DNA of 47,910 nt from a virus. Shown piece by piece: positions 4,356-44,002 of this stretch. How positions within the stretch are numbered: position 1 is the stretch's first letter; each line of letters starts with the position of its first letter. A program made the position numbers and the translations under genes. The stretch lies in UHGV virus genome UHGV-1380528; one strand, given 5' to 3'. The notes under the pieces are model-generated. The model worked only from the letters and a program-made list of their open reading frames with translations. It was not told the DNA's origin and ran no database searches.

Positions 4356-4368
4356 TTGACGTAGATTA
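4356..4368 (+). promoter_or_regulatory. conserved phage promoter-like motif TTGACGTAGATTA
   Basis: Member of 10-copy motif family; 28 nt upstream of ATG 4397; inverted partial copy caatctaca at 4329..4337. Confidence 0.5.
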
Positions 4369-4396
4369 GTCAAGATGATTTCACAGGAGAGCGACA

Positions 4397-4597
4397 ATGG
4401 CGAGACAACGCAAAGAACCACTGGAAGTATTGACTGAGATTATCGCTAAGCGCCAGCCGTTAAGCCTGCGAGATGTCAGATATTACGCGCACTGCTATGT
4501 AGCAATGCGGGAATGGAGCGCCGAAGAAATGTATGCGTTTGTGCGCGAGCATTTCAGCGTAGATGAGAAAAACAAAGTTACGTTGAGAGGTGAGTAA
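4397..4597 (+). CDS. hypothetical protein (66 aa)
   Basis: GGAG RBS; first gene of plus-strand island. Confidence 0.45.
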   Translation: MARQRKEPLEVLTEIIAKRQPLSLRDVRYYAHCYVAMREWSAEEMYAFVREHFSVDEKNKVTLRGE

Positions 4598-5064
4598 TGA
4601 AATACAAATACCATAAAGGAAGTGAAGCTGATTTTGACGGCCATCCAGGCGCCATTCTTGTTGTGAAATCAGAATCCACCGGCAGGGTATACCATCTCGG
4701 TTTGGATTACGCAGGCCGGGATAAGGATATCGAAAAGGTTGGCGACATTATTATCGCTCATCGTGAGCTGGAGCCCGACCCATGGATGCTATTTGAATCC
4801 CCCACAGGACGCCTCATCACCGAGCGCGGAAGCCGCTATGGCAAATTCAAAGACGGCGCGGATATCATGCAGTCACTGAAAGACACCATGCGTGACGTTG
4901 ACGGCTGGAACAACCTGACGGCAAGTCAGAAGGAAGCTCTCGACATGATTCAGCATAAAATCGGTCGAATCCTGAATGGCGACCCGACATACGACGATAG
5001 CTGGAAAGACATTGCTGGCTATGCAACATTAATTGTTAATGAACTGAATGGGGAGGCAAAGTGA
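4597..5064 (+). CDS. hypothetical protein (155 aa)
   Basis: ATGA overlap with upstream gene. Confidence 0.5.
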   Translation: MKYKYHKGSEADFDGHPGAILVVKSESTGRVYHLGLDYAGRDKDIEKVGDIIIAHRELEPDPWMLFESPTGRLITERGSRYGKFKDGADIMQSLKDTMRDVDGWNNLTASQKEALDMIQHKIGRILNGDPTYDDSWKDIAGYATLIVNELNGEAK

Positions 5065-5276
5065 TGCCAATACAAGACCCCGTGCCGCGCATTGAAATTG
5101 ACATGGTAGAGTTACAGGAAACTGCGCAGCGCGATTATCACCTCCCGAGGTTCAGCGAACCAGCAGCCTACATCATCACCAGCAATCGTGGGCGCCGCTA
5201 TCTAGCGTTTGCTGGTAGTGTTGAGCATCAGAACGCAGTTATGTTTGGGTATAAAATGAGGGCTTTATATGAGTAA
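5061..5276 (+). CDS. hypothetical protein (71 aa); C-terminal MFGYKMRALYE duplicated at 5523..5558
   Basis: ORF; overlapping stop/start with neighbours. Confidence 0.45.
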   Translation: MMPIQDPVPRIEIDMVELQETAQRDYHLPRFSEPAAYIITSNRGRRYLAFAGSVEHQNAVMFGYKMRALYE

Positions 5277-5508
5277 CGAAAAGACCGTAAAAGAAATGCA
5301 AAGTGATGAGCGCATCTATTTGCATCTCAGAACCGAGGGTCACGGCGTTTACCTGTTTGACCAACATGGCCGCCGGCTTGGTTGCGTGCAAAGTCAGCAA
5401 ATCAACACTAAATTTGGTGATGTAATAACAGCAACCGTTACCATCGAACTAGCATCGCCAGAATCGGAGGTTGGAGGTAAGCGAGCCTGCGCCACTCATG
5501 GGCATTAA
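5269..5508 (+). CDS. hypothetical protein (79 aa)
   Basis: ORF. Confidence 0.45.
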   Translation: MSNEKTVKEMQSDERIYLHLRTEGHGVYLFDQHGRRLGCVQSQQINTKFGDVITATVTIELASPESEVGGKRACATHGH

Positions 5509-5566
5509 ATAAAACGCGACCATGTTTGGGTATGAAATGAAACCACTGTATGAGTGAGGTGTAAAA

Positions 5567-5821
5567 ATGTCTTTAAGCTTTGGTGAGGCCTTGGAGGAGA
5601 TGGGAATTGGATGCAAGGTAGCAAGAAATGGGTGGAATGGAAAGGGTATGTTCCTGTTCATGATAGCAGGAGGGGCATGGGACTTTGAGTGCGATATTGA
5701 TGGGGTTGACGGGCTTAATACGCTACCTTTTATCTGCATGAAAACGGCTGATGGGAAACTGGTGCCATGGCTGGCAAGCCAAACCGATATGATCGCTAGC
5801 GACTGGATGGTTATTGGTTGA
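5567..5821 (+). CDS. DUF2829 / Tad2-like protein (candidate Thoeris anti-defence, gcADPR sponge)
   Basis: 84 aa; N-terminus MSLSFGEALEEMGIGCKVARNGWNGKGMFLF matches my recollection of the DUF2829 signature (FGEAL..G.KVaR.GWNGKG); GAGGTG RBS; followed by intrinsic terminator. Confidence 0.45.
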   Translation: MSLSFGEALEEMGIGCKVARNGWNGKGMFLFMIAGGAWDFECDIDGVDGLNTLPFICMKTADGKLVPWLASQTDMIASDWMVIG

Positions 5822-5825
5822 CAGA

Positions 5826-5852
5826 AAAGCCCCTTTACGGGGCTTTTTTATT
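5826..5852 (+). terminator. rho-independent terminator
   Basis: agcccctttacggggct hairpin followed by TTTTTT. Confidence 0.7.
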
Positions 5853-5862
5853 ACGGAGGGAG

Positions 5863-5891
5863 TTGACGCAGGGAAAGGTTGTTGCTACTAT
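5863..5891 (+). promoter_or_regulatory. sigma70-like promoter TTGACG-17-TACTAT
   Basis: -35 TTGACG 5863..5868, -10 TACTAT 5886..5891, between two terminators. Confidence 0.4.
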
Positions 5892-5897: not shown

Positions 5898-6003
5898 GTT
5901 TAAAAGTAACGACAACGTGAACTTCGGTACATGTTTTCGGGCAGCAGTCGGCGATTCGCACTCGCTGATTCATAAGAAAACCCCTCAATTGAGGGGTTTT
6001 TTA
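5898..6003 (+). ncRNA. candidate small RNA (about 100 nt) between promoter and terminator
   Basis: Promoter at 5863..5891 and intrinsic terminator 5977..6005 bracket about 100 nt with only a 14-codon ORF. Confidence 0.3.
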
Positions 6004-6702: not shown

Positions 6703-7133
6703 GACATATAGACCTGACGCTCTGCCGCTCTGCGCTTGGTCAGTCCGTTCATGACCTTGCCATTAGCGCGGTTCCATACCCGGAACTGGTCGGCGGCGCA
6801 GGTATAGCAGCGGGCGTTATGCTTTTTCAGCAGAGTTGATTTGCCAAAGTTACCAAGGCCGATGTTATAGGCCAGCGACACCATTGCATCAAATTGGCCT
6901 TGGGTGGTTGGGGCGGTGATGAGTGACGAAACGCCGCTTTCAAATTTCGCTACGTCGTCACGCAGCATCTTTTCCGCTTGCTGTGCGGTGATAACCATGC
7001 CTGGCTTAACGCCTTTGGTTGTACCGTAACCGATAGTCCAAGGCGCTCCGCCAGTAGCCGGGTCTGGATATGCCTTCGAGCTGTAACCCTCGAATTGTTT
7101 AATTAAATCAATTCCGCGCTGCGATAGTTTCAT
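6699..7133 (-). CDS. endolysin, T4-lysozyme-like (GH24)
   Basis: 144 aa; GIDLIKQFEGYSSKAYPD...TIGYGTT lysozyme motifs. Confidence 0.8.
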   Translation of the reverse strand: MKLSQRGIDLIKQFEGYSSKAYPDPATGGAPWTIGYGTTKGVKPGMVITAQQAEKMLRDDVAKFESGVSSLITAPTTQGQFDAMVSLAYNIGLGNFGKSTLLKKHNARCYTCAADQFRVWNRANGKVMNGLTKRRAAERQVYMS

Positions 7134-7184
7134 TTGTTACCTCCGGTGATGCAGATTATTTTATCATAATCCTATTGACGTAGA

Positions 7185-7197
7185 TTGAATCGTAGGA
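7185..7197 (+). promoter_or_regulatory. conserved promoter-like motif TTGACGTAGATTG
   Basis: 35 nt upstream of ATG 7232; second half-site gatgtagtt at 7211..7219. Confidence 0.5.
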
Positions 7198-7231
7198 GAT
7201 GATGTAGTTACACAAACACAGGGGATTCAAG

Positions 7232-7522
7232 ATGAAAAAATTTATCGCAGTGGCAGTATTCGCAATGGCTTCATTTGGTGCATCGGCTGGTGAAGTGTGC
7301 AACAAAGTTGGTGATGTTGGGTTCGCCGCGGCTGATGCTCGTGATTCCGGCGTACCTCAGAGCATAGCAATGGCGGTAGCACAAAGTCCTGAGTACGGTG
7401 TGGATGCCAACAAGGTGCTTGGTGCAACAGTGAAGATGGCCTACTCAATGCCGAACAAGACACCGAAAGAAATTAAAGCAATCACCATTGCTCTTTGCGT
7501 ATCAAGCATGGGTGACTTGTGA
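7232..7522 (+). CDS. secreted small protein (96 aa, Sec signal peptide)
   Basis: MKKFIAVAVFAMASFGASA signal peptide; first gene after motif. Confidence 0.5.
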   Translation: MKKFIAVAVFAMASFGASAGEVCNKVGDVGFAAADARDSGVPQSIAMAVAQSPEYGVDANKVLGATVKMAYSMPNKTPKEIKAITIALCVSSMGDL

Positions 7523-7653
7523 TGTGCCCGCGCCTGATGTTTAAGGCACGCAATCGCTACGTTAAGCTGGTGATGCGCGGCATGGATGAGCATGCAGCAT
7601 GGCTGAATGTTATGGGTGAACTGAAAAGTATTTATAACGGAGAGAAGAAATGA
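7522..7653 (+). CDS. small basic protein (43 aa)
   Basis: GTGATG start overlapping upstream stop; stop overlaps next ATG. Confidence 0.3.
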   Translation: MCPRLMFKARNRYVKLVMRGMDEHAAWLNVMGELKSIYNGEKK

Positions 7654-8513
7654 AGCTGATTGATATTTTGGTTGAAGAACTTCCGAAGCATGGCGGTTGG
7701 CCAAAGCGCGCAAATTGTATTACACAAGACCCTGATAAAAGAGTTGAGCCTGCAACATGTCTTCCACCTGTTGCGAAGTGTGACGACGATGGTTTTTGGT
7801 TTCTTGACTCGTCACGCATCGGTGGCTTCGAGGTTGACACCTTAGCCAGTGATCACACCACCGCAATCATCACCCGCGAACAGTACGAAGCCGCGCTGGC
7901 TGCCAAAAATGACGGCTGGATTGAGTGGGGCGGTGGTGAGTGTCCGGTTAGTGACAGCACGATAGTAGAAGTTCGCTATCGTAACGGAGAAGTTAAGGCT
8001 TCCGCCCCAGCTGATTTTTACGAATGGGGGCACGGGAGACCTCATTTTGTAACGACAGGCCGCGACATCATCGCCTACCGCCTGCACAAGCTGCAGGAAG
8101 CAGAGCAGGCCAAAGCGGATGACGAAGCCGATCTGAATGAGTTCATAGGACAGGATGCTGCGCCGGTTTGGAGTGGTGAAGGCCAGCCGCCGGTTGGTTG
8201 TGAGTGCGAGTTTATGAAACACACGCTTGATGCTATGCCCAACTGGCGTCGTGGCATCATTAAATATGTCAGCGAATATACAGTTGTGATTGTTGAGGCG
8301 CTATCTCCGGGAGAATTTGTCGCCCATCCTCGCACCTGCGATTTCCGCCCCACCCGCTCAGAAGCAGAGCGGAAGAGAGATGCGGCGGTTGAGGCTATTG
8401 ACCGTTACATGCCTGAATTTATCCCGGACACACCAAATGATTATTATAACGCAAAGAAAATATACGACGCCATCGCAGCAGGTAAAATCCCAGGCTTGAG
8501 GTTGGAGGATTAA
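7650..8513 (+). CDS. hypothetical protein (287 aa), no recognised domain
   Basis: Long ORF with RBS GGAGAGAAG; accessory island between lysis and head genes. Confidence 0.55.
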   Translation: MKLIDILVEELPKHGGWPKRANCITQDPDKRVEPATCLPPVAKCDDDGFWFLDSSRIGGFEVDTLASDHTTAIITREQYEAALAAKNDGWIEWGGGECPVSDSTIVEVRYRNGEVKASAPADFYEWGHGRPHFVTTGRDIIAYRLHKLQEAEQAKADDEADLNEFIGQDAAPVWSGEGQPPVGCECEFMKHTLDAMPNWRRGIIKYVSEYTVVIVEALSPGEFVAHPRTCDFRPTRSEAERKRDAAVEAIDRYMPEFIPDTPNDYYNAKKIYDAIAAGKIPGLRLED

Positions 8514-8514
8514 T

Positions 8515-8709
8515 ATGTACAGAATGAGCAAGAAAAGCCTCGCCGGAAGAATTATAGTGGCGCCACTATTTTTCATTATTTTGGTTATCGAGGTGATGCT
8601 GAACAAAGCTGACGACTGGAGTTGCCATGTAAGACGCATCAGGGTTAAGATGACTGACTTTGTTGATAAGAAGTTTCCGCTGGCAAACAACAAAAAAACT
8701 AATATTTGA
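8515..8709 (+). CDS. small membrane protein (64 aa)
   Basis: Hydrophobic segment IIVAPLFFIILVIEVML. Confidence 0.4.
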   Translation: MYRMSKKSLAGRIIVAPLFFIILVIEVMLNKADDWSCHVRRIRVKMTDFVDKKFPLANNKKTNI

Positions 8710-8710
8710 C

Positions 8711-8740
8711 AGAAGCCGCCATCAGGCGGCTTTCTTGTGT
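8711..8740. terminator. rho-independent terminator between convergent genes
   Basis: aagccgccatcaggcggctt hairpin then T-rich run. Confidence 0.55.
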
Positions 8741-9666
8741 GCGCCCTGCCATGCTTCCCGCTGCTTATCCAGTCTCTCTTGTGTCTTCTCAAGTATCACA
8801 GGCTTGCCATCCATCACCAATGCGGGTGTCTGCGAGCAGTGACAATTCCTGCGGTTTGCACCTTCGCTGTAGAACTCATCAATCTCTTCCGGGGTGTAAT
8901 ACTTCCCATGACGCGCAGCATGAGTAACGCGGGTTGTCTTCATCAGCGCTGACTGCCATAGCATGATGGTATCCATTCCCAGCGCGACCTGCGCCTCTTT
9001 CACTTCGCGCCTGTTAGCCTCGCGCAGGGTGTTGGTGATTTCAGTCTGAGCAATTGATCGCGCATAGCTTCTTGATACATCCATGCGGTTAACAATGTTT
9101 TGCTCAATCACTCCAGGCGCGTCGCCATTTGCAATGCCAGCAGTGACAACCTCCGCCACCTGCTGCCGCGTGTAATCTGAAAGCCCACCCCAGTCGTTAT
9201 ACGTGCGCGTGTACGCAAGCTGAAGCCTGTCGAGATACGGCTGAGAGTAGAGAATTTCAGCAAGCGACCTGCTGTCTTTGTATGCCGATGACAGGTCGCC
9301 AAGGTCTGAGTTTGCCTTCTGCGTCCCGGCATACATGGCATCACTGACATAAGATGAGGCCCATAACCTTCCGTGTGTGAAATCATCACCTTCCAGCAGC
9401 TGACCATCAAGGATGCGCTGAAGTTCATCAAAGAATGTCGATGCACGGTAGGCAGAGAAATCATAATAATAATTTCCAGCCTCAGCATTGCCGGTCGCCA
9501 CAGGAATCGTGCGGAACAGCTCGGCAACCTGCGATTTTAGCGTCACATATCTGGCGTCAACATCGCGCACCATCTTATTGACGCGACCCACTGCACCGAG
9601 TGGGTCTGTCAGGCTCATGCTTAATTTTGGCTGCGGAAGCCGGGCATTAATTTTGAGGAGGCGCAT
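8722..9666 (-). CDS. head morphogenesis protein (portal-adjacent, MuF/gp7-like); start uncertain (9618/9666/9783)
   Basis: Position directly after portal; ORF track start at 9783 overlaps portal by 136 nt, so an internal Met is more likely. Confidence 0.4.
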
Positions 9667-11102: not shown

Positions 11103-11133
11103 CCATAAAAAATCCCATCGCATGGATGGGATT
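11103..11133 (-). terminator. rho-independent terminator after HNH gene
   Basis: tcccatc-gcatg-gatggga hairpin followed on minus strand by TTTTTTAT. Confidence 0.6.
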
Positions 11134-11142
11134 ATAGCATGG

Positions 11143-12086: not shown

Positions 12087-12271
12087 TCCACCTTTTCGAA
12101 TTTGTCGATGACAACTTTGATGCCTTGTGATGTTAAAGACGATACCATATCATCCCGCCAGAAATTCTCTAGCGCAGCAACTGCGTCGGTGGCGACTATC
12201 ACTCCGCTTAACTTCTCTGCCACACAACCATTATTGAGAAAGGCTTCCGCGTGAATAAAGTAAATGCTCAT
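12083..12271 (-). CDS. hypothetical protein (62 aa)
   Basis: ORF, coupled. Confidence 0.35.
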   Translation of the reverse strand: MSIYFIHAEAFLNNGCVAEKLSGVIVATDAVAALENFWRDDMVSSLTSQGIKVVIDKFEKVE

Positions 12272-12588
12272 TACTCAGCCTCATTATCAAATGCAGCCTC
12301 AAATTTCATTGGCCTTAAAGAGGATAGCTCCGATTTGTCATCATTGATGAATTGCCTCAGACTATAGTTAGTCTGCATGTTCATCCATGATTCAGGAGTC
12401 CTGCCAACCACTATAGAGAGGCGCATAGCCATACCAGCACTCAAGTCCATATTCTTGCTTGTAATCCTGCTAACGGTTGACGCTGATACGCCAAGGTTCC
12501 TTGCCATTTCCTCGCAAGTGATGCCGTATGGCTTCATAAAAACACTTAACAGGAATTCACCTGGATGCATTGGGTCTTTGATATACAT
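12271..12588 (-). CDS. HigA-family XRE helix-turn-helix antitoxin-like protein
   Basis: MHPGEFLLSVFMKPYGITCEEMARNLGVSASTVSRI...TPESWMNMQTNYSL matches HigA antidote family signature. Confidence 0.6.
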   Translation of the reverse strand: MYIKDPMHPGEFLLSVFMKPYGITCEEMARNLGVSASTVSRITSKNMDLSAGMAMRLSIVVGRTPESWMNMQTNYSLRQFINDDKSELSSLRPMKFEAAFDNEAE

Positions 12589-12752
12589 CACTCAATCTCC
12601 TCGCCATCAACCCAGCGTTGCAGGACTTCGATAAGCTGCGCGGCCTGGTGTTTGTCGATAACGACAATGTCACCTTGCTGCTCAACATGAACCGACTCAG
12701 CTCCGCGATGAATAAGCTCGACATCCTCATGCACTTTTCCATTAATAATCAT
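12588..12752 (-). CDS. small protein (54 aa, MIINGKVHEDVELIHRG...), upstream partner of HigA-like gene; not RelE/HigB-like
   Basis: ATGA overlap with upstream gene and TGATG overlap with HigA-like gene; not in ORF track (under 60 aa). Confidence 0.4.
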   Translation of the reverse strand: MIINGKVHEDVELIHRGAESVHVEQQGDIVVIDKHQAAQLIEVLQRWVDGEEIE

Positions 12753-12988
12753 AAATCACCACCCTCATCGTTATTTAACTCAACATTCCGAAAGAAATCG
12801 TTAATCGTCTTCAGGCCACTATAACCACGGCGCCGCTGCAACTCACACAGCACTTCATCATACATGCGCAGAAGAATAGCCTCATCCACATCGTACCTTT
12901 CGCATAGCGCCTCATCCGACACACCAGCTCTTGCGAGTGAGTATATTTTTTCCTTCTGCTCCCACGAAAAAGATGAATATGCCTTCAT
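12749..12988 (-). CDS. small putative HTH protein (79 aa)
   Basis: First gene of three-gene coupled operon; SWEQKEKIYSLARAGVSDEALCERYDV HTH-like. Confidence 0.4.
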   Translation of the reverse strand: MKAYSSFSWEQKEKIYSLARAGVSDEALCERYDVDEAILLRMYDEVLCELQRRRGYSGLKTINDFFRNVELNNDEGGDL

Positions 12989-13021: not shown

Positions 13022-13050
13022 TTGACGTAGATTATAGCATGGCGTAGATT
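13022..13050 (+). promoter_or_regulatory. promoter TTGACG-17-TAGATT containing conserved TTGACGTAGATTA motif
   Basis: -35 13022..13027, -10 TAGATT 13045..13050, 26 nt before ATG 13077. Confidence 0.55.
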
Positions 13051-13076
13051 AAAATGAAACCTCTCGGAGAAATCTT

Positions 13077-13367
13077 ATGAAATGTGTCATTTTTGAGCTT
13101 GATGGTGTGCTGCGTGATGCGGAGGGAAATGCTATTGCTGGTAACGTTGCGCTGGCTAAGTCGCTCTACTCTGCCGGGCATGATGTGCTTATCATGAGGG
13201 CAAAGCATGCGTATGAGTGGCTGCATGCTAACGATATTTTCTATGATGACATTATGGCTTCGCACCAGCAGATTGACGCTGACAGAGTGGCAATGGCGGT
13301 CGTGTCTGATGATGTTATTTATGCTGCTATGCGCAATGCGGGGATTCATTGCTGGCTTTACAAATAA
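13077..13367 (+). CDS. small HAD-like protein (96 aa), motif I ELDGVL
   Basis: VIFELDGVL resembles HAD motif I DxDGxL with Glu in place of the nucleophile Asp. Confidence 0.4.
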   Translation: MKCVIFELDGVLRDAEGNAIAGNVALAKSLYSAGHDVLIMRAKHAYEWLHANDIFYDDIMASHQQIDADRVAMAVVSDDVIYAAMRNAGIHCWLYK

Positions 13368-13380: not shown

Positions 13381-13409
13381 TTGACGTGGATTCGTGGTTG
13401 ATGTAGATT
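13381..13409 (+). promoter_or_regulatory. promoter TTGACG-17-TAGATT (motif family)
   Basis: ttgacgtggatt ... ttgatgTAGATT; -10 at 13404..13409. Confidence 0.5.
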
Positions 13410-13443
13410 TTACTCATCAAGTTGATTTGCGGAGATAGTAAAG

Positions 13444-13599
13444 ATGAAAGAAATCCAATTTAGCGCAAAAAAGAATAAGTTTGGCCGAATAATGTTTTAT
13501 GTAATGGAGGACAGGAAACACTTGTATGAATTTAACACCATAGAATCCGCGATGGCTTGCGTTATCGAGCTAGGTAAAAGATCTCAGAATGCATTATGA
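13444..13599 (+). CDS. small protein (51 aa, MKEIQFSAKKNKFGRIMFYVMEDRKHLYEF...)
   Basis: GGAGA RBS; followed directly by terminator. Confidence 0.4.
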   Translation: MKEIQFSAKKNKFGRIMFYVMEDRKHLYEFNTIESAMACVIELGKRSQNAL

Positions 13600-13601: not shown

Positions 13602-13630
13602 AGAAGCCCTCCAGTGAGGGCTTTTTCTTA
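13602..13630 (+). terminator. rho-independent terminator
   Basis: gaagccctccagtgagggcttt hairpin plus TTTTT. Confidence 0.6.
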
Positions 13631-15488: not shown

Positions 15489-15547
15489 GTCGTTTTCGTC
15501 TTTTCGTAAACCGAATACAAGTATATTAACACATGGTGTAGATAAAA

Positions 15548-15580
15548 AAAGAACCCGCCGAAGCGGGTTAAAGGGTGGTG
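15548..15580 (-). terminator. rho-independent terminator ending leftward early operon
   Basis: aacccgcttcggcgggtt hairpin followed on minus strand by CTTTTTTTAT. Confidence 0.65.
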
Positions 15581-16012: not shown

Positions 16013-16519
16013 TCATGACTTACCTCCGCTGAGCATGGCTGAGCGCTGCGCTACTATCTCAAGCAACCTCTCTTCAGCCTCCCAAAGACAACTACCTACA
16101 CCACGGCAATCTCCGTCGAGGTTATTCAGGTCTGCGCGTATTCGGGCAACATCCTGCAATGCGTTCAGCACATCATCAGGCACTACCGGCACTACCGGCG
16201 CTGGCAGCTCCGATACTAACGGACTGACATCCGATACTACTGGCGCTGGTTTCTGAGATACTGCGGCATAGCAGTCCTCGCACAGACCATCGACCGAATA
16301 CCCGTAGATAGGCTTATTGCAGTTTCTGTCTTTGCAGCGGCGTCGTTCATGTTTCTGAAGAACGTTGTCCAGCGTGATGAAGTCAACGCTGGGATGCGCC
16401 ATGCGGGCCATCATCGCAAACTCGCTGCACTGATTAATCATTGGGTCGCTGGCAATTTCTTCTAGCCGCTCTCTGCTCATTAATTGTGCTGTCATACGGC
16501 CTCCCGGCGATTTCTGCAT
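16013..16519 (-). CDS. Cys-rich protein with internal tandem repeat (168 aa)
   Basis: CKDRNCNKPIYGYSVDGLCEDC cluster; DNA tandem ggcactaccggcactaccggcgctgg at about 16188..16214. Confidence 0.45.
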   Translation of the reverse strand: MQKSPGGRMTAQLMSRERLEEIASDPMINQCSEFAMMARMAHPSVDFITLDNVLQKHERRRCKDRNCNKPIYGYSVDGLCEDCYAAVSQKPAPVVSDVSPLVSELPAPVVPVVPDDVLNALQDVARIRADLNNLDGDCRGVGSCLWEAEERLLEIVAQRSAMLSGGKS

Positions 16520-16752
16520 TGCCTTAGCAGTTGGTCAAACAAAGAAGACAGACGATAATCTACAGGGGAATATTTTACATTTTTCCCGCTTTTCATTTTC
16601 ATGAGTTCGCCTTTTTCAACAAGCCGGTTAAGTTGGCACGTCACTGAATCCCGCTTGATGGTTGGTTTTTCTTGAAGATAGCCATCCAGGATATCCCCAG
16701 CGGTAAAAGTACCTGATTGCTTTCTGATGTATTCGCGTAAAGTACCCATCAC
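16492..16752 (-). CDS. winged-helix DNA-binding protein (86 aa)
   Basis: ORF with HTH-like segment. Confidence 0.4.
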   Translation of the reverse strand: MMGTLREYIRKQSGTFTAGDILDGYLQEKPTIKRDSVTCQLNRLVEKGELMKMKSGKNVKYSPVDYRLSSLFDQLLRQCRNRREAV

Positions 16753-18512: not shown

Positions 18513-18549
18513 CTCTTTGTTGTTGGTGTGGTAACTATACGATGGCGCT

Positions 18550-18562
18550 CAATCTACGTCAA
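18550..18562 (-). promoter_or_regulatory. conserved promoter-like motif TTGACGTAGATTG (minus orientation)
   Basis: caatctacgtcaa on plus strand; only minus-oriented full copy; upstream of 18512 gene. Confidence 0.5.
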
Positions 18563-18599
18563 TATGATGGTGAAAATAAAATTTAGTTAGTAATCACTT

Positions 18600-19005
18600 A
18601 CAGTTATTATTTTTGTAAGTTGCTGATATTTATAGACCACGCTCAACCCATTCAACCCAAGATTTTTTTGTACTTAACCATAAATAATAATGTAAATTCA
18701 TTGACTTATGTAGTGTTCAACCATTTATTACTTATCCCTTGAGTATCATGGTTAGTGATAATGATTTTTGCATGAGATTTTTGTAGTGACGGTGGAGGGT
18801 GTGGAAAATGGGTTGAATTGGATAAATACTACTATCTATTAATAATAATAGTAGTAAATACATACACATAGTATGTAAAAACACTTATCCAAACACTTAC
18901 CCCGACTCATCCATTTCAACCCGAAAAGTTTAATTGATAATGGAATTGACCATCCTGCGCCTTTGTTTTATTATTTTATTATTAGGAAACGGAGGGGATT
19001 AACCA
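18600..19005. other. AT-rich intergenic control / candidate replication-origin region with TTCAACC(C/A) iterons
   Basis: Copies at about 18643, 18651, 18716, 18914 and inverted ggttgaat at about 18811; AT-rich tract with TACATA...TATGTA inverted repeat; divergent transcription point. Confidence 0.4.
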
Positions 19006-20902: not shown

Positions 20903-20937
20903 AAAAACCCTCCATCAGGAGGGTTTGTTTTTTAGTG
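20903..20937. terminator. bidirectional rho-independent terminator
   Basis: accctccatcaggagggt hairpin flanked by A-run and T-run. Confidence 0.7.
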
Positions 20938-21808: not shown

Positions 21809-21827
21809 AATTTAACCTTGATTATTT

Positions 21828-21861
21828 CCGTAGATTCAGTCTACTATTGTGACGTAGATTG
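21828..21861 (+). promoter_or_regulatory. tandem cgTAGATT elements and TGACGTAGATTG motif in divergent promoter region
   Basis: cgtagatt 21829..21836 and tgacgtagattg 21850..21861 directly upstream of helicase gene. Confidence 0.45.
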
Positions 21862-23806: not shown

Positions 23807-24223
23807 TTGAAGCAGCTTGATAGTGGAATATGGGTATTTGATAGCGGTTATCGCGGGGAGTGTCCAAGGGAGGAAACTGACCAGATGGCCTATGGCCTTT
23901 GGATGCAATACCGATTTCCTGATGTCCTGTGGTTTCATGTCCCTAATGAGACAGGCACAAAGAGTGGGCCGCAATTCGTGGAGAAGCGCCGAAAGATGGG
24001 CGTCAGGAGCGGTGTAAGCGACAACGTGATACTAACCAACGGCATTAATCATAAATGCGGCCTGATTGAACTGAAGAGGCGTGATAAGACAAAATCAAAA
24101 GTATCGCCATCGCAGATTGAGGTTCTTGAGTGTGCCATTGCAGAGGGTCATTTTGGCGCCATTGCTTATGGCCTTGAGGAGATAAAAAGAGCGACGTTAT
24201 TCTACTTTGGGCTTGATGAATGA
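23807..24223 (+). CDS. VRR-NUC domain nuclease
   Basis: GVRSGVSDNVIL ... GLIELKRRDK...SPSQIEVL...GAIAYG matches PD-(D/E)xK VRR-NUC pattern. Confidence 0.55.
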   Translation: MKQLDSGIWVFDSGYRGECPREETDQMAYGLWMQYRFPDVLWFHVPNETGTKSGPQFVEKRRKMGVRSGVSDNVILTNGINHKCGLIELKRRDKTKSKVSPSQIEVLECAIAEGHFGAIAYGLEEIKRATLFYFGLDE

Positions 24224-24228
24224 CGTTG

Positions 24229-24242
24229 TTTGATGTAGATTG
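24229..24242 (+). promoter_or_regulatory. motif variant TTTGATGTAGATTG
   Basis: 26 nt upstream of ATG 24268. Confidence 0.4.
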
Positions 24243-27104: not shown

Positions 27105-27131
27105 TAAAAGGGCCGAATGGCCCTTTTTTAA
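27105..27131. terminator. bidirectional rho-independent terminator
   Basis: gggccgaatggccc hairpin flanked by AAAA and TTTTTT. Confidence 0.7.
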
Positions 27132-31071: not shown

Positions 31072-31100
31072 TCTCCGTAATCATTGATTGCCCTATTATA

Positions 31101-33581: not shown

Positions 33582-34008
33582 AAGTCAGGAACCTTAATTT
33601 TGTTGATAATTTTTCGAGTGTTTTAAGGCGGTCTGTCTTGACTGCCGTTTTCTCTCGCGCATGCAGTATTTTATCACGACCCCACCACAGAGCGACATGT
33701 ACCGGATGACTGGCTCGATAGGCAACCACCACATCGCCAATTTTTGGCCGGTCTGTGTCTTTCCAGAATGAAACTTCCTCATTGAAACAAGTGACAAAAT
33801 CGCCGCCACTTGAATATGAATCATCGTGATGAACATTGATATTCATACAAAGACGATAGAACAGCACCACCAGACCCCAGCAGTCCACTGCATCAACGTG
33901 ACAGCATCTGTCAACATATGGTTTTCCAGCCATCAGCCGCTCAAAATCGTCAAACGGTACGCAGTCCGGGGAATTCTGTGATGTCATAAAGTTTTGCCAC
34001 GTTGCCAT
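33529..34008 (-). CDS. tail assembly protein, NlpC/P60 peptidase-like (gpK-like)
   Basis: 159 aa with Cys/His arrangement ([12 protein letters not shown] ... [14 protein letters not shown]). Confidence 0.5.
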
Positions 34009-38180: not shown

Positions 38181-38887
38181 TATTTTGCTCCTTTGCTTTT
38201 AGCGGCCTTTCTGGCGGCTTTCTCTTTCAGTTTCTGTTTATTCAGCTTGGCCCGCTCATAAGACGCATCATACTGCTCGCGCGTCATGCCTTCCGGTTCC
38301 GGGTATTTTGATTTTATCATCTGCTGATACTCGGTCATGGTCAGGTCTTCGGCTTCCTCGCGGGTGATTCCGAAATGAGTGCGAGCTGAGATGATGTAAT
38401 CAGACATTCTCAGCTCACTGGTTGTGCGCTTTTGGTTTTCCGAGCGCTGAGGAACCTTGAGCGGAGACTTACCGATGATGCCATGCTCCATCAGGTTGCG
38501 AGCAATAATAATAATGTCATTTACCGGCATTCTTCCGGTGACGTACTTCACACCGCGCGGAGTTGGCTTCCATGACCCAATGAGCACCGAGATATCATCA
38601 TCGCAACATGACTGCATGATGAGACAGGCGGCGCTGAGCACTTTCTTGCCATAGACAGGGCGTGACAGGATTTTTGCCACCTGAATCTGTGCGCCATACG
38701 GCATTGACTGAATGGCGCCAAGTATGGCTGCGTATTCATAGCCATTAAGCGTGGCGTACAGCTCGACAATCTCTTTCGGTGAGCCAAGCTCATTCATCGC
38801 CGCAAATGATGGTTTGAAGAAAAAAGACTTGTCAGCCAGGGAGATGCGCATCTCTCCGATTTCTGTTAGCGGTGTGCGTTGTCTCAT
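38180..38887 (-). CDS. tail assembly chaperone (possibly G/GT-type fusion)
   Basis: 235 aa directly upstream of tape measure; Lys-rich C-terminus. Confidence 0.45.
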   Translation of the reverse strand: MRQRTPLTEIGEMRISLADKSFFFKPSFAAMNELGSPKEIVELYATLNGYEYAAILGAIQSMPYGAQIQVAKILSRPVYGKKVLSAACLIMQSCCDDDISVLIGSWKPTPRGVKYVTGRMPVNDIIIIARNLMEHGIIGKSPLKVPQRSENQKRTTSELRMSDYIISARTHFGITREEAEDLTMTEYQQMIKSKYPEPEGMTREQYDASYERAKLNKQKLKEKAARKAAKSKGAK

Positions 38888-38943
38888 GTCTAAATCCTGT
38901 TTTCACAATGACGTAATTATACCATTGACAGGGGGCACAAAAC

Positions 38944-38955
38944 TGACGTAGATTG
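38944..38955 (+). promoter_or_regulatory. conserved motif TGACGTAGATTG
   Basis: 30 nt upstream of ATG 38985; TTGACA at 38925..38930 upstream. Confidence 0.45.
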
Positions 38956-39611: not shown

Positions 39612-39799
39612 TGAAATCTGGATATCCTGGGAATAATGAATATCCCATCCCATATCGCCACGTTAATGTGATTGTTATAGCTCGAGGGAAAATCAAGGCT
39701 AAGTATGATGGCGTAGCATACTGGAGTGGATTTAGGTGGATGGGAGTTGATGGGTTCAGGATTGGTTATGGACGGGTTATAAAATGGATTTATAAATAA
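39611..39799 (+). CDS. small protein (62 aa, MKSGYPGNNEYPIPY...)
   Basis: GTGATG coupling; followed by terminator. Confidence 0.35.
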   Translation: MKSGYPGNNEYPIPYRHVNVIVIARGKIKAKYDGVAYWSGFRWMGVDGFRIGYGRVIKWIYK

Positions 39800-39823
39800 A
39801 CCCCCTTTCGGGGGTTTTCTTTA
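39797..39823. terminator. bidirectional rho-independent terminator
   Basis: ccccctttcggggg hairpin with T-runs on both strands. Confidence 0.7.
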
Positions 39824-40576: not shown

Positions 40577-40621
40577 GTTTAGAATCCTCTGTGTTTAGCT
40601 AAACAATCGCATTATATCATG

Positions 40622-40650
40622 TTGACAGGTGTTGATTGGTGGTGTAGATT
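40622..40650 (+). promoter_or_regulatory. consensus sigma70-type promoter TTGACA-17-TAGATT
   Basis: -35 40622..40627, 17-nt spacer, -10 40645..40650; no protein gene for about 900 nt downstream. Confidence 0.55.
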
Positions 40651-41300
40651 TAACTTGCTGGTCGCAGAATGCAGGAAGATTGAAAGGTGGTATTCGGATT
40701 GACTGTTAATTTGAGACGCCAGCAACTATCAGGTAAGGGCATTGGGTTAGCGCAGCAGAGAAACCGTCAAAGTAGAGTCATAATCGAAAAGACGATTCTG
40801 TTTGGTCGATGCAATGAGTGCTCTTTCCGATAGTTTTCGTGGCGACTTTGCGGGTTTTTAGAAACTGACCACAAAGATAAATGCAAACGAAGAAATGTAT
40901 CTGGCAGTAGCCTAACGGCTAAACACCAGCAAGGTCTTCCGACTCCTTGTCAATGAATTCGGCGCATTGCGGCCCTGAGATGTGATTAATAAATCAGGGC
41001 ACACAACAGGTAAGAGCATTGAATGTCGCGTTAGCGAATGGACAAGGTTTCCTTGCAGTGCTCTTTCCGTTGTGGTAATGCGGCTATGCGCACGCGGCAA
41101 GGTAGAAATATACTCCCGATTGACTATGCCTGCTGGATTTACCGACCAGCAACCTGGAGGCACCAGGGCCACAACAATATATATGAAATGGGCTGATCAC
41201 CCTAAAGTCGTCGAACTGATGTCCTCTGAACTGCAATGCTAAATAACATATCTTTGATATCTTATTCTGGCACCAGATTCATGGTTGAAGCGGCGCACAT
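40651..41300 (+). ncRNA. noncoding leader / candidate ncRNA region upstream of tRNA cluster with two imperfect repeat units
   Basis: No credible ORF; repeated blocks caggtaagRgcattg, agtgctctttccg and cgattgact occur twice (about 40700..40845 and about 41008..41125). Confidence 0.35.
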
Positions 41301-41302
41301 AC

Positions 41303-41390
41303 GGATAGTTGGCTGAGAGGACGAAAGCAGTCGGTTGCTAACCGATAAACCGGAAACGGTTCACAGGTTCGAATCCTGTACTATCCGCCA
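41303..41390 (+). tRNA. tRNA-Ser (anticodon GCU), type II with long variable arm
   Basis: Manual fold: acceptor GGATAGT/ACTATCC, anticodon loop TTGCTAA, variable stem ACCG/CGGT, T-loop GGTTCGAATCC, encoded CCA. Confidence 0.75.
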
Positions 41391-41396
41391 CATTCA

Positions 41397-41473
41397 GCAC
41401 CATTAGCGTAATTGGATAGCGCAAGAGGCTTCTATCCTCTGGGTTTCAGGTTCGAATCCTGAATGGTGCACCA
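41397..41473 (+). tRNA. tRNA-Arg (anticodon UCU)
   Basis: Manual fold: acceptor GCACCAT/ATGGTGC, anticodon stem AGAGG/CCTCT loop CTTCTAT, T-loop TTCGAAT, CCA. Confidence 0.75.
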
Positions 41474-41476
41474 AAT

Positions 41477-41553
41477 TCCCGTTTAGCTTAACTGGTTAAA
41501 GCACCCGACTCATAATCGGATGATTACAGGTTCGAATCCTGTCGCGGGAACCA
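41477..41553 (+). tRNA. tRNA-Met (anticodon CAU; elongator/initiator/Ile2 identity unresolved)
   Basis: Manual fold: anticodon loop CTCATAA, T-loop TTCGAAT, acceptor with one 7:66 mismatch, CCA. Confidence 0.6.
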
Positions 41554-41864: not shown

Positions 41865-41867
41865 AAA

Positions 41868-41897
41868 TAACAGGCCGCATTAGCGGCCTTTTTTATT
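41868..41897. terminator. rho-independent terminator
   Basis: ggccgcattagcggcc hairpin plus TTTTTT. Confidence 0.65.
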
Positions 41898-42276
41898 CAC
41901 CAAAAACAACCCTCAGCAACAATTCATAAACAGGCCGTTGCTCTGTCGTAAGCGTCGGGCGACCAAGCGGCGCCTGTAGCTGAATCATGCCAATACAACT
42001 ATCAACGGGATGCTCTTTGATGTATGCGATGACATCAAGCGCTTTAGCTTTTGTCTCCTCAATGTTGTACTGACCCTGCTGACCGACAACATAGAGCGAA
42101 AAATAATAATCATTGCTGAGGTCTTTGCTTACGTTCGTTCCGCCATTGGATTGCAGCACCACAAACCGGTCGGTGCCAACTTCGGTATCGTTCCAGAACT
42201 CAAGCTGAGAAGTCCACCCATCATAAAGACCGGCATCGCTAAGGTACTGGTCAACAAGCTCAAGCATATCTCTCAT
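41893..42276 (-). CDS. tail terminator / completion protein candidate
   Basis: 127 aa, last head-tail gene before major tail. Confidence 0.4.
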   Translation of the reverse strand: MRDMLELVDQYLSDAGLYDGWTSQLEFWNDTEVGTDRFVVLQSNGGTNVSKDLSNDYYFSLYVVGQQGQYNIEETKAKALDVIAYIKEHPVDSCIGMIQLQAPLGRPTLTTEQRPVYELLLRVVFGE

Positions 42277-42689
42277 TTTAGCGTCATCTCTTTTTTAATT
42301 ACCTGATCGACAAGCTCGCGTGTATTCTCGCCAGCCTTGAGAAGGAATTTAGGTTCGCCGCTCTTATCCCACACGTTACCCTTTCCTTTGAGCCATCCTG
42401 TGCGCGGTGTATTCGTGCCAAGCAGTTTACCTGGTGCATTGTGGACATACAGAGCATAATTAGCTGCATACCCAATCTTGCCAGTTATGCGAGTGCCATT
42501 AACCTCAACAGTATCATACTGGCTGTTTATCAGCGCCGATGTAGCTACTGGAGTCATGGAGGCCGATTCAGTCCTGATGATGTAGGTAGCGGCTTTTATT
42601 GCTGACACCGCTTTCTCTCCAGTAATCTCGCCTACTATCTGCTGAGTGCGCTTGATCGCCTGCTGGATACCTCGCATTTTGGCGGCCAT
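42273..42689 (-). CDS. HK97 gp10-family tail component
   Basis: 138 aa resembling HK97 gp10-like proteins; position. Confidence 0.45.
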   Translation of the reverse strand: MAAKMRGIQQAIKRTQQIVGEITGEKAVSAIKAATYIIRTESASMTPVATSALINSQYDTVEVNGTRITGKIGYAANYALYVHNAPGKLLGTNTPRTGWLKGKGNVWDKSGEPKFLLKAGENTRELVDQVIKKEMTLK

Positions 42690-42692
42690 GCA

Positions 42693-43037
42693 TTACCCCG
42701 TTACCAGCGCAAAATCAGGCAGGTCATTGCGGTCTAACGTATTGCCGTAATTCACAACGTTTCTAATCTGGTCAGCTCCGGCGGGCAGCGGGTCAGAGCT
42801 GGTAATGGTGCCAAGCATGATGAAGTCGCCAACAGACGCATCCTGATATTCCGTCCAGAATGTGTTTTTCTGTGCAATCTCATTGCCAGCAGTGCCAGTG
42901 GTCAGATTCTTATCGAAGCCATAATCACACATGATGGACTCTGGAGCGGCAAATGTCGGCTTGCCATACTTATCCTTGCCAGTAAGCCGCCAGATTGTGC
43001 ATGGCTGCGTATAGCTCCATCTCGCTATTGCTGACAT
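42693..43037 (-). CDS. head-tail adaptor protein
   Basis: 114 aa; position. Confidence 0.4.
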   Translation of the reverse strand: MSAIARWSYTQPCTIWRLTGKDKYGKPTFAAPESIMCDYGFDKNLTTGTAGNEIAQKNTFWTEYQDASVGDFIMLGTITSSDPLPAGADQIRNVVNYGNTLDRNDLPDFALVTG

Positions 43038-43155
43038 GGTGCGGCCTCAAGAGTATAAACCCAGCGCGGAACAGGAAGGCGCAGCAATACCAGAATAACC
43101 AGCAGCGGCATGCACCATTTACGGATTGCGATATTTACAGTTAATGTTTGCGTTT

Positions 43156-43545
43156 TCATCTGCACTTGCTCCCGGTGACAACCCGAAACCACAGCTTTGC
43201 TGTCCCATCAGGCTCTTCCACAAGGTCGCCTGTGCAGTCTGCCGTATCGAGTAGTTTCATCTGATTGTAAAGGGCCATCCACGGCTTGCTGCCATAGCCA
43301 AATGACTGCGACGCACCAGATGGCGCCCGATGGCTGGTAATGTATCTCCCGGCTGTATTTGAGGCGATCAGGATAGATGCCCATAGCAGAATTGCATCCT
43401 GCCTGCATGTGTCTTCAGGGTAATTAAGCTCAAGGCACTCTGTGATGCTCGCCACCAGGCACAGGATGCCCGTTGCATCTGCCGTGGTGATGGTTACGCC
43501 TCTTGACGCCATGGCGGCGACGAGTTCACTTGCTGTCGGTGCTGC
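43156..43545 (-). CDS. head-tail connector / head closure protein candidate
   Basis: Internal Met MAAPTASELVAAMASRG preferred over track start; position after capsid genes. Confidence 0.35.
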   Translation of the reverse strand, partial: AAPTASELVAAMASRGVTITTADATGILCLVASITECLELNYPEDTCRQDAILLWASILIASNTAGRYITSHRAPSGASQSFGYGSKPWMALYNQMKLLDTADCTGDLVEEPDGTAKLWFRVVTGSKCR

Positions 43546-43813
43546 CATTCTTTTTGCTCTCCCGAATCTTCCACCACATCTCAAAAAGGTTTTTTGCCAC
43601 CAGTGACAGCGCGCCAAGTATAGAAGCTACCGCTGCCCACTCGGTAATCGAATGGGGGATCATTGAGGCAATGTATGATTGCGCTACTGGCGTTTGCTCT
43701 GCCACCTTCAGGCCAAGGCCCGTACCAATGGACGTATAACCGGCTTTGTCGATTACCTGGCCGACAGTGCCACTAATTATCTGGTTTGCGGCGTGCTGAA
43801 GCGCGTCTCTCAT
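43526..43813 (-). CDS. small membrane protein (95 aa, C-terminal TM)
   Basis: Hydrophobic WAAVASILGALSLVAKNLF. Confidence 0.3.
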   Translation of the reverse strand: MRDALQHAANQIISGTVGQVIDKAGYTSIGTGLGLKVAEQTPVAQSYIASMIPHSITEWAAVASILGALSLVAKNLFEMWWKIRESKKNGSTDSK

Positions 43814-43973
43814 TAATTATTCTCCGAATGATGAACTTCCAGCATCTGTACACCTGAACCAGCGAAAACGCTATGACGATAACGCCGATTGCTATATCCA
43901 ATTTCGCCGCCTTACGTTTTTCAGGACGGAACAGCGCGGGGTGAGTGTTGTTGGTTTAATTTTATCATAAAGT

Positions 43974-44002
43974 GTTGACGTAGATTGAGGGTGTAGCTAT
44001 AG
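43974..44002 (+). promoter_or_regulatory. promoter TTGACG-17-TATAGT including TTGACGTAGATTG motif
   Basis: -35 43974..43979, -10 TATAGT 43997..44002; upstream of 44044 gene. Confidence 0.55.

Follow-up and report, generated by a model that had tools for sequence, protein, structure and literature searches.

Does the short sequence that recurs upstream of genes throughout this genome serve only the host RNA polymerase, or does it also carry a signal for a regulator of the phage's own? The window (the whole stretch of DNA analysed) is the genome of a Klebsiella siphovirus of ~48 kb, and its repeated element is a single unit of 12-13 bp, TGAYGTAGATTG, which we write as [TTGAYG][TAGATT] because its halves look like a -35 and a -10 hexamer; it has no dyad symmetry, and we found no description of it in the literature searched. 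The 13-mer TTGACGTAGATTG is present in three exact copies (7175+, 18550-, and 43975+), in 8 copies at up to one mismatch (adding 4356, 13022, 21849, 24230, and 38943), and in 11 copies at up to two, compared with means of 0, 0.03, and 0.99 in 200 dinucleotide-preserving shuffles. The most over-represented 10-mer of the window is GACGTAGATT (6 seen versus 0.018 expected), and the most over-represented 9-mer is TGACGTAGA (7 versus 0.083), which bridges the junction between the two halves. The recurrence noted in the first-pass annotation stands, but some of its positions do not: the copy placed at 7185 starts at 7175, others are one nucleotide out, and the sequence at 40622 (TTGACAGGTGTTG) is no copy of the 13-mer but a consensus -35, paired with a degenerate unit at 40639-40651 as its -10; the next gene there is a tRNA 680 nt away.

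A position weight matrix search places 15 of 19 matches in intergenic DNA, which makes up ~10% of the window; one match, at 46919, falls within a small minus-strand gene. All eight copies of TTGACGTAGATTG with up to one mismatch are intergenic and share the orientation of the next gene. From motif start to start codon we measured 41, 57, 55, 63, 50, 34, 38, 42, and 69 nt, a range of 34-69 in place of the 25-40 nt given originally, and, contrary to the claim that a copy precedes each plus-strand unit, the primase operon (promoter TTGACC-17-TATTAT at 18946) has none.

How the unit is built into promoters, all of which are predicted from hexamers, varies from site to site. Exact units form the -35 of three of them. 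The plus-strand unit at 7175..7187 (TTGACG-17-GATGAT) drives 7232-8927 and is followed by a second box, TGATGTAGTTAC, at 7200-7211, while the unit-like GTGATGCAGATTA at 7146..7158 (+) lies antisense within the lysis operon leader. On the minus strand, the unit at 18550-18562 pairs with TATAGT at 18539-18534 (promoter 18534..18562) and drives a block of small ORFs from 18512 to 15762, with a terminator at 15569-15552. The best-conserved cassette, at 43975..44043 (+), combines a unit as -35 (43975-43987), the -10 TATAGT (43998-44003), a second box, ATGACGTAGAAAC, at 44005-44017 with TAGAAA at +2..+7, and the conserved leader AACAATAAATGTTAGAGGTGATG; it drives a variable first ORF and then a ParB/KorB-like gene. 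Two double promoters use the unit for both hexamers. At 13022..13051 (+), units at 13022-13034 and 13039-13051 supply the -35 and the -10 (TAGATT at 13045-13050) with a period of 17 and drive 13077-13367, with a third unit-like copy, TGATGTAGTTA, nearby at 12999; at 13381..13410 (+), TTGACGTGGATTC-gtgg-TTGATGTAGATTT, which has 19 orthologous variants, drives 13444-13599, a transcription unit that ends at the terminator 13602-13625.

Elsewhere the unit supplies the -10 alone. The exonuclease/recombination operon promoter (24213..24242, +) has TTGATG at 24213-24218 as its -35 and the TAGATT of TTGATGTAGATTG (24230-24242) as its -10, with an overlapping degenerate unit at 24220-24232 (+). At 38925..38955 (+), TTGACA (38925-38930) stands 18 nt from the TAGATT of CTGACGTAGATTG (38943-38955) and drives a NinX-like island that ends at the terminator 39798-39817; at 40622..40651 (+), TTGACA-17-TAGATT takes its -10 from the degenerate unit GTGGTGTAGATTT and precedes a 650-nt leader followed by tRNA-Ser/Arg/Met (41303-41553). 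The helicase promoter (21818..21861, +; -35 TTGATT 21818-21823, -10 TACTAT 21842-21847) carries the unit-like CCGTAGATTC in its spacer (21825-21837) and GTGACGTAGATTG at 21849-21861, with TAGATT at +2..+7. Finally, TTGACGTAGATTA (4356..4368, +) lies upstream of the 4397 island (a 66-aa ORF, DUF6378, and a Tad2-like anti-Thoeris gene), between two facing TTGAC hexamers in a palindrome at 4348-4373. The operon with a tandem winged-helix gene has a minus-strand promoter, TTGACT(4373-4368)-18-AATACT(4349-4344), in which the TAGATT of a degenerate unit, GTGTTGTAGATTG (4329..4341, -), falls at +3..+8. The GTAGATT of this last unit is retained in the relative L001 despite different flanks.

The -35/17 nt/-10 geometry proposed earlier is correct at 13022, 13381, 40622, and 43975, and we find it as well at 18562(-), 38925 (18 nt), and 7175, where the -10 is weak. 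At 24230 and 38943, in contrast, TAGATT does not merely abut a -35 but is itself the -10, its -35 lying 17-18 nt upstream. On these predictions, then, five promoters take their -35 from the unit and five their -10, with further promoters carrying it in the spacer or at +2/+3, so that one element is used in at least four registers. Units are confined to the interval from -35 to about +12 of every predicted promoter, where RNA polymerase would sit; the final one is always 20-33 nt upstream of the start codon; and a copy near the start site lies 7-8 nt past the -10 in three independent promoter families (21855, 44011, and 4335(-)) and in the Salmonella cluster. The two halves are evidently linked, since the -35s that belong to units are always TTGACG, with a non-consensus G, TAGATT -10s are always preceded by TG(A/G)(C/T)G, and TGACGTAGA spans the junction; the two -35 hexamers outside units are consensus TTGACA with no TAGATT after them, and the TATAGT and TACTAT -10s lack the preceding bases. 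The evidence supports the first-pass view that the boxes mark the promoters of early or accessory transcription units, here those for replication and recombination, anti-defence, tRNAs, and small ORFs with no known function.

Late genes use a separate promoter class, the extended -10 TGNTAWAAT, often back-to-back with box promoters. One such promoter, TGATAAAAT (43959..43967, -), serves the minus-strand structural block and stands back-to-back with the 43975 unit; others lie at 2090-2098, 7158-7166, 11131-11139, 13031-13039, 31095-31103, 38916-38924, and 40611-40619. In five divergent intergenic regions the late promoter adjoins or overlaps an early one, and the late promoters that stand alone, at 2098, 11139, 31103, and ~15530, contain no units. 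Thermus phage P23-45 (gp39/gp76) and T4, with its AsiA-resistant extended -10 promoters, switch over time from -35-dependent to extended -10 promoters. The layout here is similar, in that early units combine a strong -35 with a weak -10 and structural genes have TGNTAWAAT with no -35, but those systems use polymerase-binding proteins, of which none was identified in this phage, rather than a DNA box.

The unit is conserved throughout a clade of siphoviruses of Klebsiella, Salmonella, E. coli, and Shigella that includes Skatevirus and Macdonaldcampvirus; we found it in VLCpiS13f, SCNJ1-C, Salmonella Vi II-E1, and 36 + 79 IMG/VR loci. It stands within nearly all early promoters of this phage and of its Salmonella and E. 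coli relatives. For the promoter at 43975, we calculated the mean pairwise difference per site over 45 distinct orthologues, retrieved with a search pattern that left the TAGATTG half and the spacer unconstrained. TAGATTG shows 0.043 differences per site and the second box 0.023, as against 0.396 in the next 10 spacer bases, 0.408 in the 2-3 bases after the -10, and 0.339 in the 30 bases upstream. The half of the unit that is dispensable for sigma-70 is as conserved as the half that sigma-70 needs, and the evidence supports purifying selection on the bases of the box beyond the sigma-70 hexamer, as would be expected of an operator. The operator-like part of the earlier description is thereby supported, but its simple fusion of a -35 with an operator half-site gives way to a single unit in several registers. 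The second box is invariant and reads TAGAAA; without the final T needed by sigma region 2, its constraint would be something other than -10-like recognition. Some of the apparent conservation is due to recent common ancestry: the 18562 promoter family is nearly invariant over 80 nt.

Recombination might account for the conservation, if it had spread and homogenised promoter-leader cassettes as linkers for swapping accessory genes, their extra bases having no specific function. Among relatives, the ORF that comes first after the conserved promoter and leader at 43975 differs in at least 10 ways, the leader ATAAATGTTAGAGGTGATG is duplicated in VLCpiS13d with one copy on each side of an inserted gene, and a leader of the form ...ACAA...AGAGGTGATGRA.ATG is common to three promoters. 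Gene conversion, however, would homogenise the whole cassette, whereas the spacer and the bases after the -10 differ at ~0.4 per site and TAGATTG at 0.04, a pattern that points to selection, and units are also seen where the promoter flanks are unrelated. We regard this explanation as quite improbable.

The unit could instead be read by host E-sigma70 only, as a self-similar hexamer module of period 17 that yields strong or tandem promoters, its +2/+3 copies being promoter-proximal pause elements with a -10-like directly after a -35-like hexamer. Two units 17 bp apart do make a canonical promoter, and the copies 7-8 nt after the -10 speak for this reading. It is documented that -10-like elements of the initially transcribed region, with a contribution from -35-like ones, cause sigma-dependent pausing (PMC3326312), as is Q-loading at a QBE together with a sigma-dependent pause element (PMC9388147). 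The lambdoid PR', with its Q-binding element and sigma-dependent pause element, shares with our promoters a conserved element between -35 and -10 and, among the earliest bases transcribed from the promoters at 43975, 21849, and 4373(-), a -10-like directly after a -35-like hexamer. It differs in being one promoter rather than many, in the frequent TAGAAA of the start-site box here, and in that we found neither a Q homologue nor a terminator just downstream of unit promoters. Several points count against a polymerase-only reading: the TAGATT left over after a -35 has no usable -35 of its own 16-18 bp upstream (AATTTT at 43975) and no TG extension, yet is nearly invariant; the invariant TAGAAA is a poor -10-like element; and units keep TTGACG though sigma-70 prefers TTGACA. 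Moreover, we know of no sigma-70 contact that reads positions -29 to -23. On balance, we consider E-sigma70 alone a rather unlikely explanation.

Nor do we find it easy to credit a polymerase modified by the phage, with the unit as an activator box or compact promoter, whether through MotA/AsiA-like sigma appropriation or through a holoenzyme whose sigma region 4 lies beside region 2 and reads [TTGAYG][TAGATT] whole. The box in promoters where the unit is the -35 does span -35 to -23, which is where T4 has its MotA box; the 20-33 nt that always separate a promoter's last unit from the start codon would be expected if its TAGATT were the functional -10; and at 4356 and 21849 TAGATT has no good canonical partner hexamer. 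But units keep a near-consensus -35, which appropriation-type promoters replace, an activator box would require a fixed register, and a scan of ~40 small proteins found no MotA, AsiA, or sigma-like domain. T4 early and middle and T5 early promoters, including the T4 MotA box at -30, resemble ours as host-polymerase promoters conserved family-wide beyond the two hexamers, and our box, too, lies around -30 where the unit is the -35, but their extra blocks keep a fixed register and the T4 MotA/AsiA pair has no detected homologue here. Least probable of all is a site for a host transcription factor common to Klebsiella, Salmonella, and E. coli; the box is indeed shared by phages that infect several enterobacteria, but it resembles no enterobacterial regulator consensus known to us.

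The reading that we tentatively favour is that the box, built into sigma-70 early promoters, is the operator of a putative DNA-binding protein of the phage; conservation beyond the needs of the host RNA polymerase makes it probably the docking site of such a regulator. A phage-encoded, sequence-specific protein would compete with RNA polymerase at the unit, an operator that would have evolved to be compatible with both hexamers and so could be built into a -35 or a -10. Occupied units would shut off the -35-dependent early promoters and thereby free the abutting or overlapping TGNTAWAAT promoters in the five divergent regions; if this is true, the box regulator times early versus late genes. 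An asymmetric unit at non-helical spacings (10, 17, 24, 30-31, and 36 bp) would be unusual for classical repressors, and strong early promoters of T5 and T4 are known to have conserved blocks in common beyond the hexamers with no dedicated regulator, which counts against an operator. A comparable layout is that of lambda OR, where divergent PR and PRM stand back-to-back, short cI and Cro operators cover one promoter's -35/-10 and lie near the other's -35 region, and a temporal switch results. Lambda operators, however, are 17-bp dyads at two loci bound by dimers, whereas here an asymmetric unit is scattered over ~11 promoters and itself serves as their hexamers; unlike lambda, moreover, this phage looks strictly lytic.

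Which protein might bind the box? Of the three small helix-turn-helix proteins suggested previously, only the 2909-3397 product survives, as 16492-16752 is absent from relatives that retain the motif and 12749-12988 has no detected DNA-binding domain. The survivor is a tandem winged-helix protein (2909..3379, -), annotated 'MarR family' in relatives and confined to 155 phage records, every one of them from this host range; against it, its identity is 36% between clusters whose box is almost identical. An equally good candidate, missing from the earlier list, is a ParB/Spo0J-family protein with HTH_ParB and KorB domains (44446..45297, +), which matches KorB structures 8qa8 and 1r71, shows 81% identity between the window and Vi II-E1, and is kept in the smallest viable seszw deletion mutant. 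ParB-family proteins usually bind palindromes, which counts against it, and a search for a parS-like palindrome family found none. The gene is also deleted in VLCpiS13d, where a divergent ParB-like gene is inserted. The RK2/RP4 KorB regulon, in which a ParB-family repressor acts at 12 OB operators found in promoters all over the replicon, offers a parallel in protein family and in the recurrence of one short box at many promoters in a small replicon, that of the candidate regulator's own operon among them; it differs in that OB is a 13-bp palindrome, the CTP-binding GERR motif is GQHR in the protein here, and the candidate gene is replaced in VLCpiS13d. The operons of both candidates begin at a promoter with a unit at the predicted transcription start, which would fit autoregulation.

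The 13-mer TTGACGTAGATTG, which the first-pass annotation had put forward as a genome-wide mark of early and accessory promoters, is over-represented in the window: it occurs three times exactly, eight times with at most one mismatch, and eleven times with at most two (shuffle means 0, 0.03, and 0.99, respectively). In an unbiased k-mer screen, GACGTAGATT is the top-ranked 10-mer and TGACGTAGA the top-ranked 9-mer. Scanning the window with a PWM gives 19 matches, 15 of which fall within the approximately 10% of the sequence that is intergenic; the match at 46919 lies in a small minus-strand gene and was discarded as a chance match. All eight copies with at most one mismatch lie between genes, in the orientation of the gene that comes next; a short leader containing a Shine-Dalgarno sequence follows, and the start codon comes 20–33 nt after the end of the last unit. 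The list of positions given initially proved largely right, except that the copy placed at 7185 is at 7175, and 40622, counted there as a copy, is a consensus -35. The distance from motif to start codon, previously put at 25–40 nt, measures 34–69 nt, and the rule that a copy precedes every plus-strand transcription unit breaks down at the primase operon, whose promoter (18946, TTGACC-17-TATTAT) has none. Upstream of that operon, a 400-nt AT-rich non-coding gap (18563–18962) carries four TTCAACC repeats (18651, 18716, and 18915 on the plus strand and 18817 on the minus strand) and may be a replication origin.

The element is best described as a single unit, [TTGAYG][TAGATT](G), that is used in several registers. 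A sigma-70 scan based on hexamers only (one TTGACA-like and one TAnnnT, separated by 17 ± 1 bp) is passed by the predicted promoters at 7175, 13022, 13381, 18562 (minus strand), 38925, 40622, and 43975; by inspection, 24213–24241 also fits a sigma-70 layout, and 4356 and 21849 have weak partner hexamers only. The unit forms the -35, with the -10 lying 17 nt downstream, at 7175, 13022, 13381, 18562 (minus strand), and 43975. It forms the -10, with the -35 lying 17–18 nt upstream, at 13039, 13398, 24230, 38943, and 40639, the last three being partnered by TTGATG at 24213, TTGACA at 38925, and TTGACA at 40622, respectively. At 21825, and probably at 4356, it lies in the spacer, and at 21849, 44005, and 4329 (minus strand) it sits at the transcription start, where TAGATT or TAGAAA follows the -10 by 7–8 nt (+2/+3). 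Among relatives the unit most often comes as two tandem copies with a period of 17 bp, TTGACGTAGAWTC-N4-TTGATGTAGATTG, in which the first unit supplies the -35 and the second the -10. Every -35 that belongs to a unit reads TTGACG, and neither of the two -35s outside units, both consensus TTGACA, has a TAGATT after it; similarly, all TAGATT -10s are preceded by TG(A/G)(C/T)G, whereas the TATAGT and TACTAT -10s are not. Approximately 11 promoter regions carry the unit, and every unit lies between -35 and +12, overlapping the predicted polymerase footprint. The unit has no dyad symmetry beyond a palindromic ACGT core, and its copies, spaced at 10, 17, 24, 30–31, and 36 bp, form no helically phased repeats. 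Two other descriptions were dropped: a 10-bp periodic TTGA repeat, like lambda CII sites, fits some of the promoters only, and a GANTC methylation site fits only the TAGATTC variants.

Units are found upstream of the helicase gene, the exonuclease/AAA/SSB operon, a polynucleotide-kinase-like gene, a NinX-like island, the tRNA cluster, several small-ORF islands, and an operon consisting of a variable first ORF, a ParB-like gene, and a methylase fragment; a minus-strand unit is predicted to drive the small-ORF block upstream of the terminase. One of the small-ORF islands, that of the 4356 promoter, contains a Tad2-like Thoeris anti-defence domain (5567–5821; Pfam PF11195, 2.5e-24). The islands end in terminators at 5977–6000, 13602–13625, 15552–15569, 20905–20926, 27106–27127, and 39798–39817. 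The hairpins at 5977–6000 and 27106–27127, which are perfect palindromes with A and T runs beside them, lie between convergent blocks and are likely bidirectional terminators. Between the 40622 promoter and the tRNA-Ser/Arg/Met genes lies a non-coding leader of approximately 650 nt (40650–41300) with an internal repeat, AGTGCTCTTTCCG; its bases 40829–40992 match, at 79–89% identity, DNA that is unannotated in Kuttervirus-type myoviruses (Cba120, Se-G, and others), and an Rfam search, which returned the three tRNAs only, gave no match to it.

Structural and lysis genes are served by a second predicted promoter class, an extended -10, TGNTAWAAT, without a -35. Its ten matches all lie on the minus strand, which is that of the structural and lysis genes (2090–2098, 7158–7166, 11131–11139, 13031–13039, 31095–31103, 33668–33676, 38311–38319, 38916–38924, 40611–40619, and 43959–43967), and an additional site of the class, TGTTAATAT, stands before the terminase at approximately 15522–15530. 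Five of these late promoters stand back-to-back with unit promoters, either 0–8 bp from the -35 or inside the spacer (late/unit pairs 7166/7175, 13039/13022, 38924/38925, 40619/40622, and 43967/43975), and the same layout is present in three complete relatives, VLCpiS13f, SCNJ1-C, and Salmonella phage Vi II-E1. Stand-alone late promoters are without units. The resulting regulatory map, with approximately 11 unit-bearing early or accessory promoters, approximately 11 extended -10 late promoters, and island-bounding terminators, predicts a DNA box to mutate and two candidate proteins to test.

Megablast groups the window with Klebsiella siphoviruses of approximately 46–48 kb (VLCpiS13f, SCNJ1-C, Tbat1_6, KP591P1, BUCT610, and KpV2811), with 86–93% identity across shared parts; farther off are phages infecting Salmonella, E. 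coli, and Shigella that belong to Skatevirus, Macdonaldcampvirus (Vi II-E1), and allied genera. Because the major capsid gene is split across its ends (1–191 and 47002–47910), the window probably represents a whole genome, circularly permuted. The unit occurs in all three complete relatives, Vi II-E1 included, and in IMG/VR in 36 loci gathered by their helicase homologues and 79 gathered by their ParB-like homologues, with protein identities as low as 67%. Across 45 distinct orthologues of the 43975 promoter, the mean pairwise difference per site is 0.043 for TAGATTG and 0.396 for the next 10 spacer bases, 0.408 for the 2–3 bases past the -10, 0.041 for the leader, and 0.339 for the 30 upstream bases; the second box, TGAYGTAGAAAC, most of which was fixed by the search pattern, gives 0.023. 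The pattern also fixed the hexamers and left the TAGATTG half and the spacer free, so that the half of the unit unread by sigma-70 is under purifying selection. Some other promoter families, such as that of 18562, hardly vary over 80 nt among the Klebsiella phages available and are uninformative on selection.

The unit is a real regulatory element throughout a clade that includes Klebsiella phages related to VLCpiS13f, BUCT610, and KlebP_265 together with Skatevirus, Macdonaldcampvirus, and allied genera, and many of whose members were isolated as candidates for therapy or biocontrol. In general kind it is familiar, a phage-specific early promoter that has a control site built in; that the same element serves as either hexamer is uncommon. 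Full-text literature searches with the motif strings returned unrelated primer sequences only, searches by phage name and "promoter" returned nothing on the motif, and the annotated records of relatives, including the GenBank record of Vi II-E1, mark other repeats but not the unit. Our literature searches touching on transcription found neither transcript mapping for the clade nor an account of its transcription control.

We favour, while giving it slightly less than an even chance, a reading of these patterns in which the unit would be the operator of a phage DNA-binding protein, built into the early promoters. Such a protein would recognise TGAYGTAGA(TT), a site that may have evolved to be compatible with both hexamers and could hence be built into either, and an occupied unit would block polymerase at early promoters. 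Polymerase on an early promoter would also cover the late -10, so that early silencing should unmask the late promoter; a dual-use operator of this sort would be a compact design principle for gene timing in small lytic genomes. We favour this operator because the register varies and yet always keeps the unit between -35 and +12, because bases unread by polymerase are under selection, because the two halves of the unit are linked, because the invariant box at the transcription start is TAGAAA, a poor -10-like element, and because the stand-alone late promoters do without units. It is weakened by having only putative binders, by the lack of dyad symmetry, and by spacings that are not helically phased.

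In one rival account, the elements are purely intrinsic to sigma-70, sigma-dependent pausing included (a documented concept; PMC3326312, PMC9388147). At the lambdoid Q-dependent PR', a -10-like pause element early in the transcript goes with a Q protein and a terminator farther down; in the window, TAGATT or TAGAAA is found at +2/+3 in three promoters, with no match to a Q family and no terminator directly after. By analogy with lambdoid Q-loading complexes, the unit, as a -35-like and a -10-like hexamer without a gap, might be read whole by RNA polymerase in a non-canonical conformation, with sigma region 4 beside region 2; the units would then be genome-wide sigma-dependent pause or loading sites for an elongation factor, or a compact promoter for a phage-remodelled holoenzyme. 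We regard this as improbable; if true, a lytic siphovirus would be reprogramming the polymerase of its host by a means that is new. Another rival invokes an activator or remodelled polymerase, as at T4 middle promoters (MotA/AsiA), where the place of the -35 is taken by a box centred at -30; here, however, the units keep a near-consensus -35, and Pfam and PHROGs scans of approximately 40 proteins gave no match to a MotA- or AsiA-like family.

For a phage-encoded operator protein, as against the rival possibility that a host factor reads the unit, there are two candidate genes. Three small HTH proteins had been suggested at the outset. The BlaI-like winged-helix protein (16492–16752) is ruled out by its absence from VLCpiS13f, SCNJ1-C, and Vi II-E1, all of which carry the motif, and the product of 12749–12988 is a 57-aa protein with no recognisable domain. 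The third (2909–3397, here 2909–3379, minus strand) stays a candidate: annotated as "MarR family" in relatives, it is modelled as a single chain made up of two winged-helix domains (pLDDT 79), a predicted monomeric tandem architecture that would suit an asymmetric site. This protein is found in 155 phage records only, all from the host range of this clade. Between the Klebsiella and Salmonella clusters it is only 36% identical, which counts against it, and its second recognition helix keeps the basic residues; a Foldseek search with the model returned generic winged-helix arrays only, with no functional assignment. A further HTH gene (12271–12591, minus strand; HigA/XRE-type, HTH_3, 8e-5) is absent from the three complete relatives and is an accessory gene.

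The other candidate is the ParB/Spo0J/KorB-like protein at 44446–45297 (HTH_ParB, 4e-11; KorB, 3e-6; matches to the structures Spo0J 1vz0, 2e-11, and KorB 8qa8, 2e-4). It shares 81% identity with the homologue in Vi II-E1, its gene lies in the operon of 43975, which among the two-box promoters is the best conserved, and the smallest seszw deletion mutant that is still viable retains the gene. The window thus encodes an HTH regulator of the ParB family, as a global operator network of the KorB/ParB type would need, but such a network leads one to expect a palindromic operator or parS, and the unit is asymmetric; no palindrome or parS-like site recurred in an inverted-repeat scan. That the ParB family normally binds palindromes counts against this candidate, as does the divergent paralogue that takes the gene's place in phage VLCpiS13d. 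Homologues at 42–44% identity (L114–L118) lie on contigs that match no isolated phage, in which neither GTAGATT nor an alternative recurring promoter motif was found.

At 43975–44043, the promoter and leader ATAAATGTTAGAGGTGATG are conserved, and the ORF that comes first after them differs among relatives in at least 10 ways; the segment looks like a hot spot for gene exchange and offers a natural docking point for swapping anti-defence genes, which is of use in engineering the phages and in the search for further genes of this kind. This bears on a last rival, that the repeated promoters are recombination cassettes, which the variable first ORFs support. T4-type PeSL mobile cassettes consist of a conserved early promoter and stem-loop flanking variable ORFs; here, variable first ORFs follow a conserved promoter and leader, and no conserved counterpart of the stem-loop was noted beside the units in the primary sequence. 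Also in favour of cassettes is VLCpiS13d (6980–7850), where the usual ParB-like gene is deleted and the leader is duplicated on both sides of the inserted divergent ParB-like gene.
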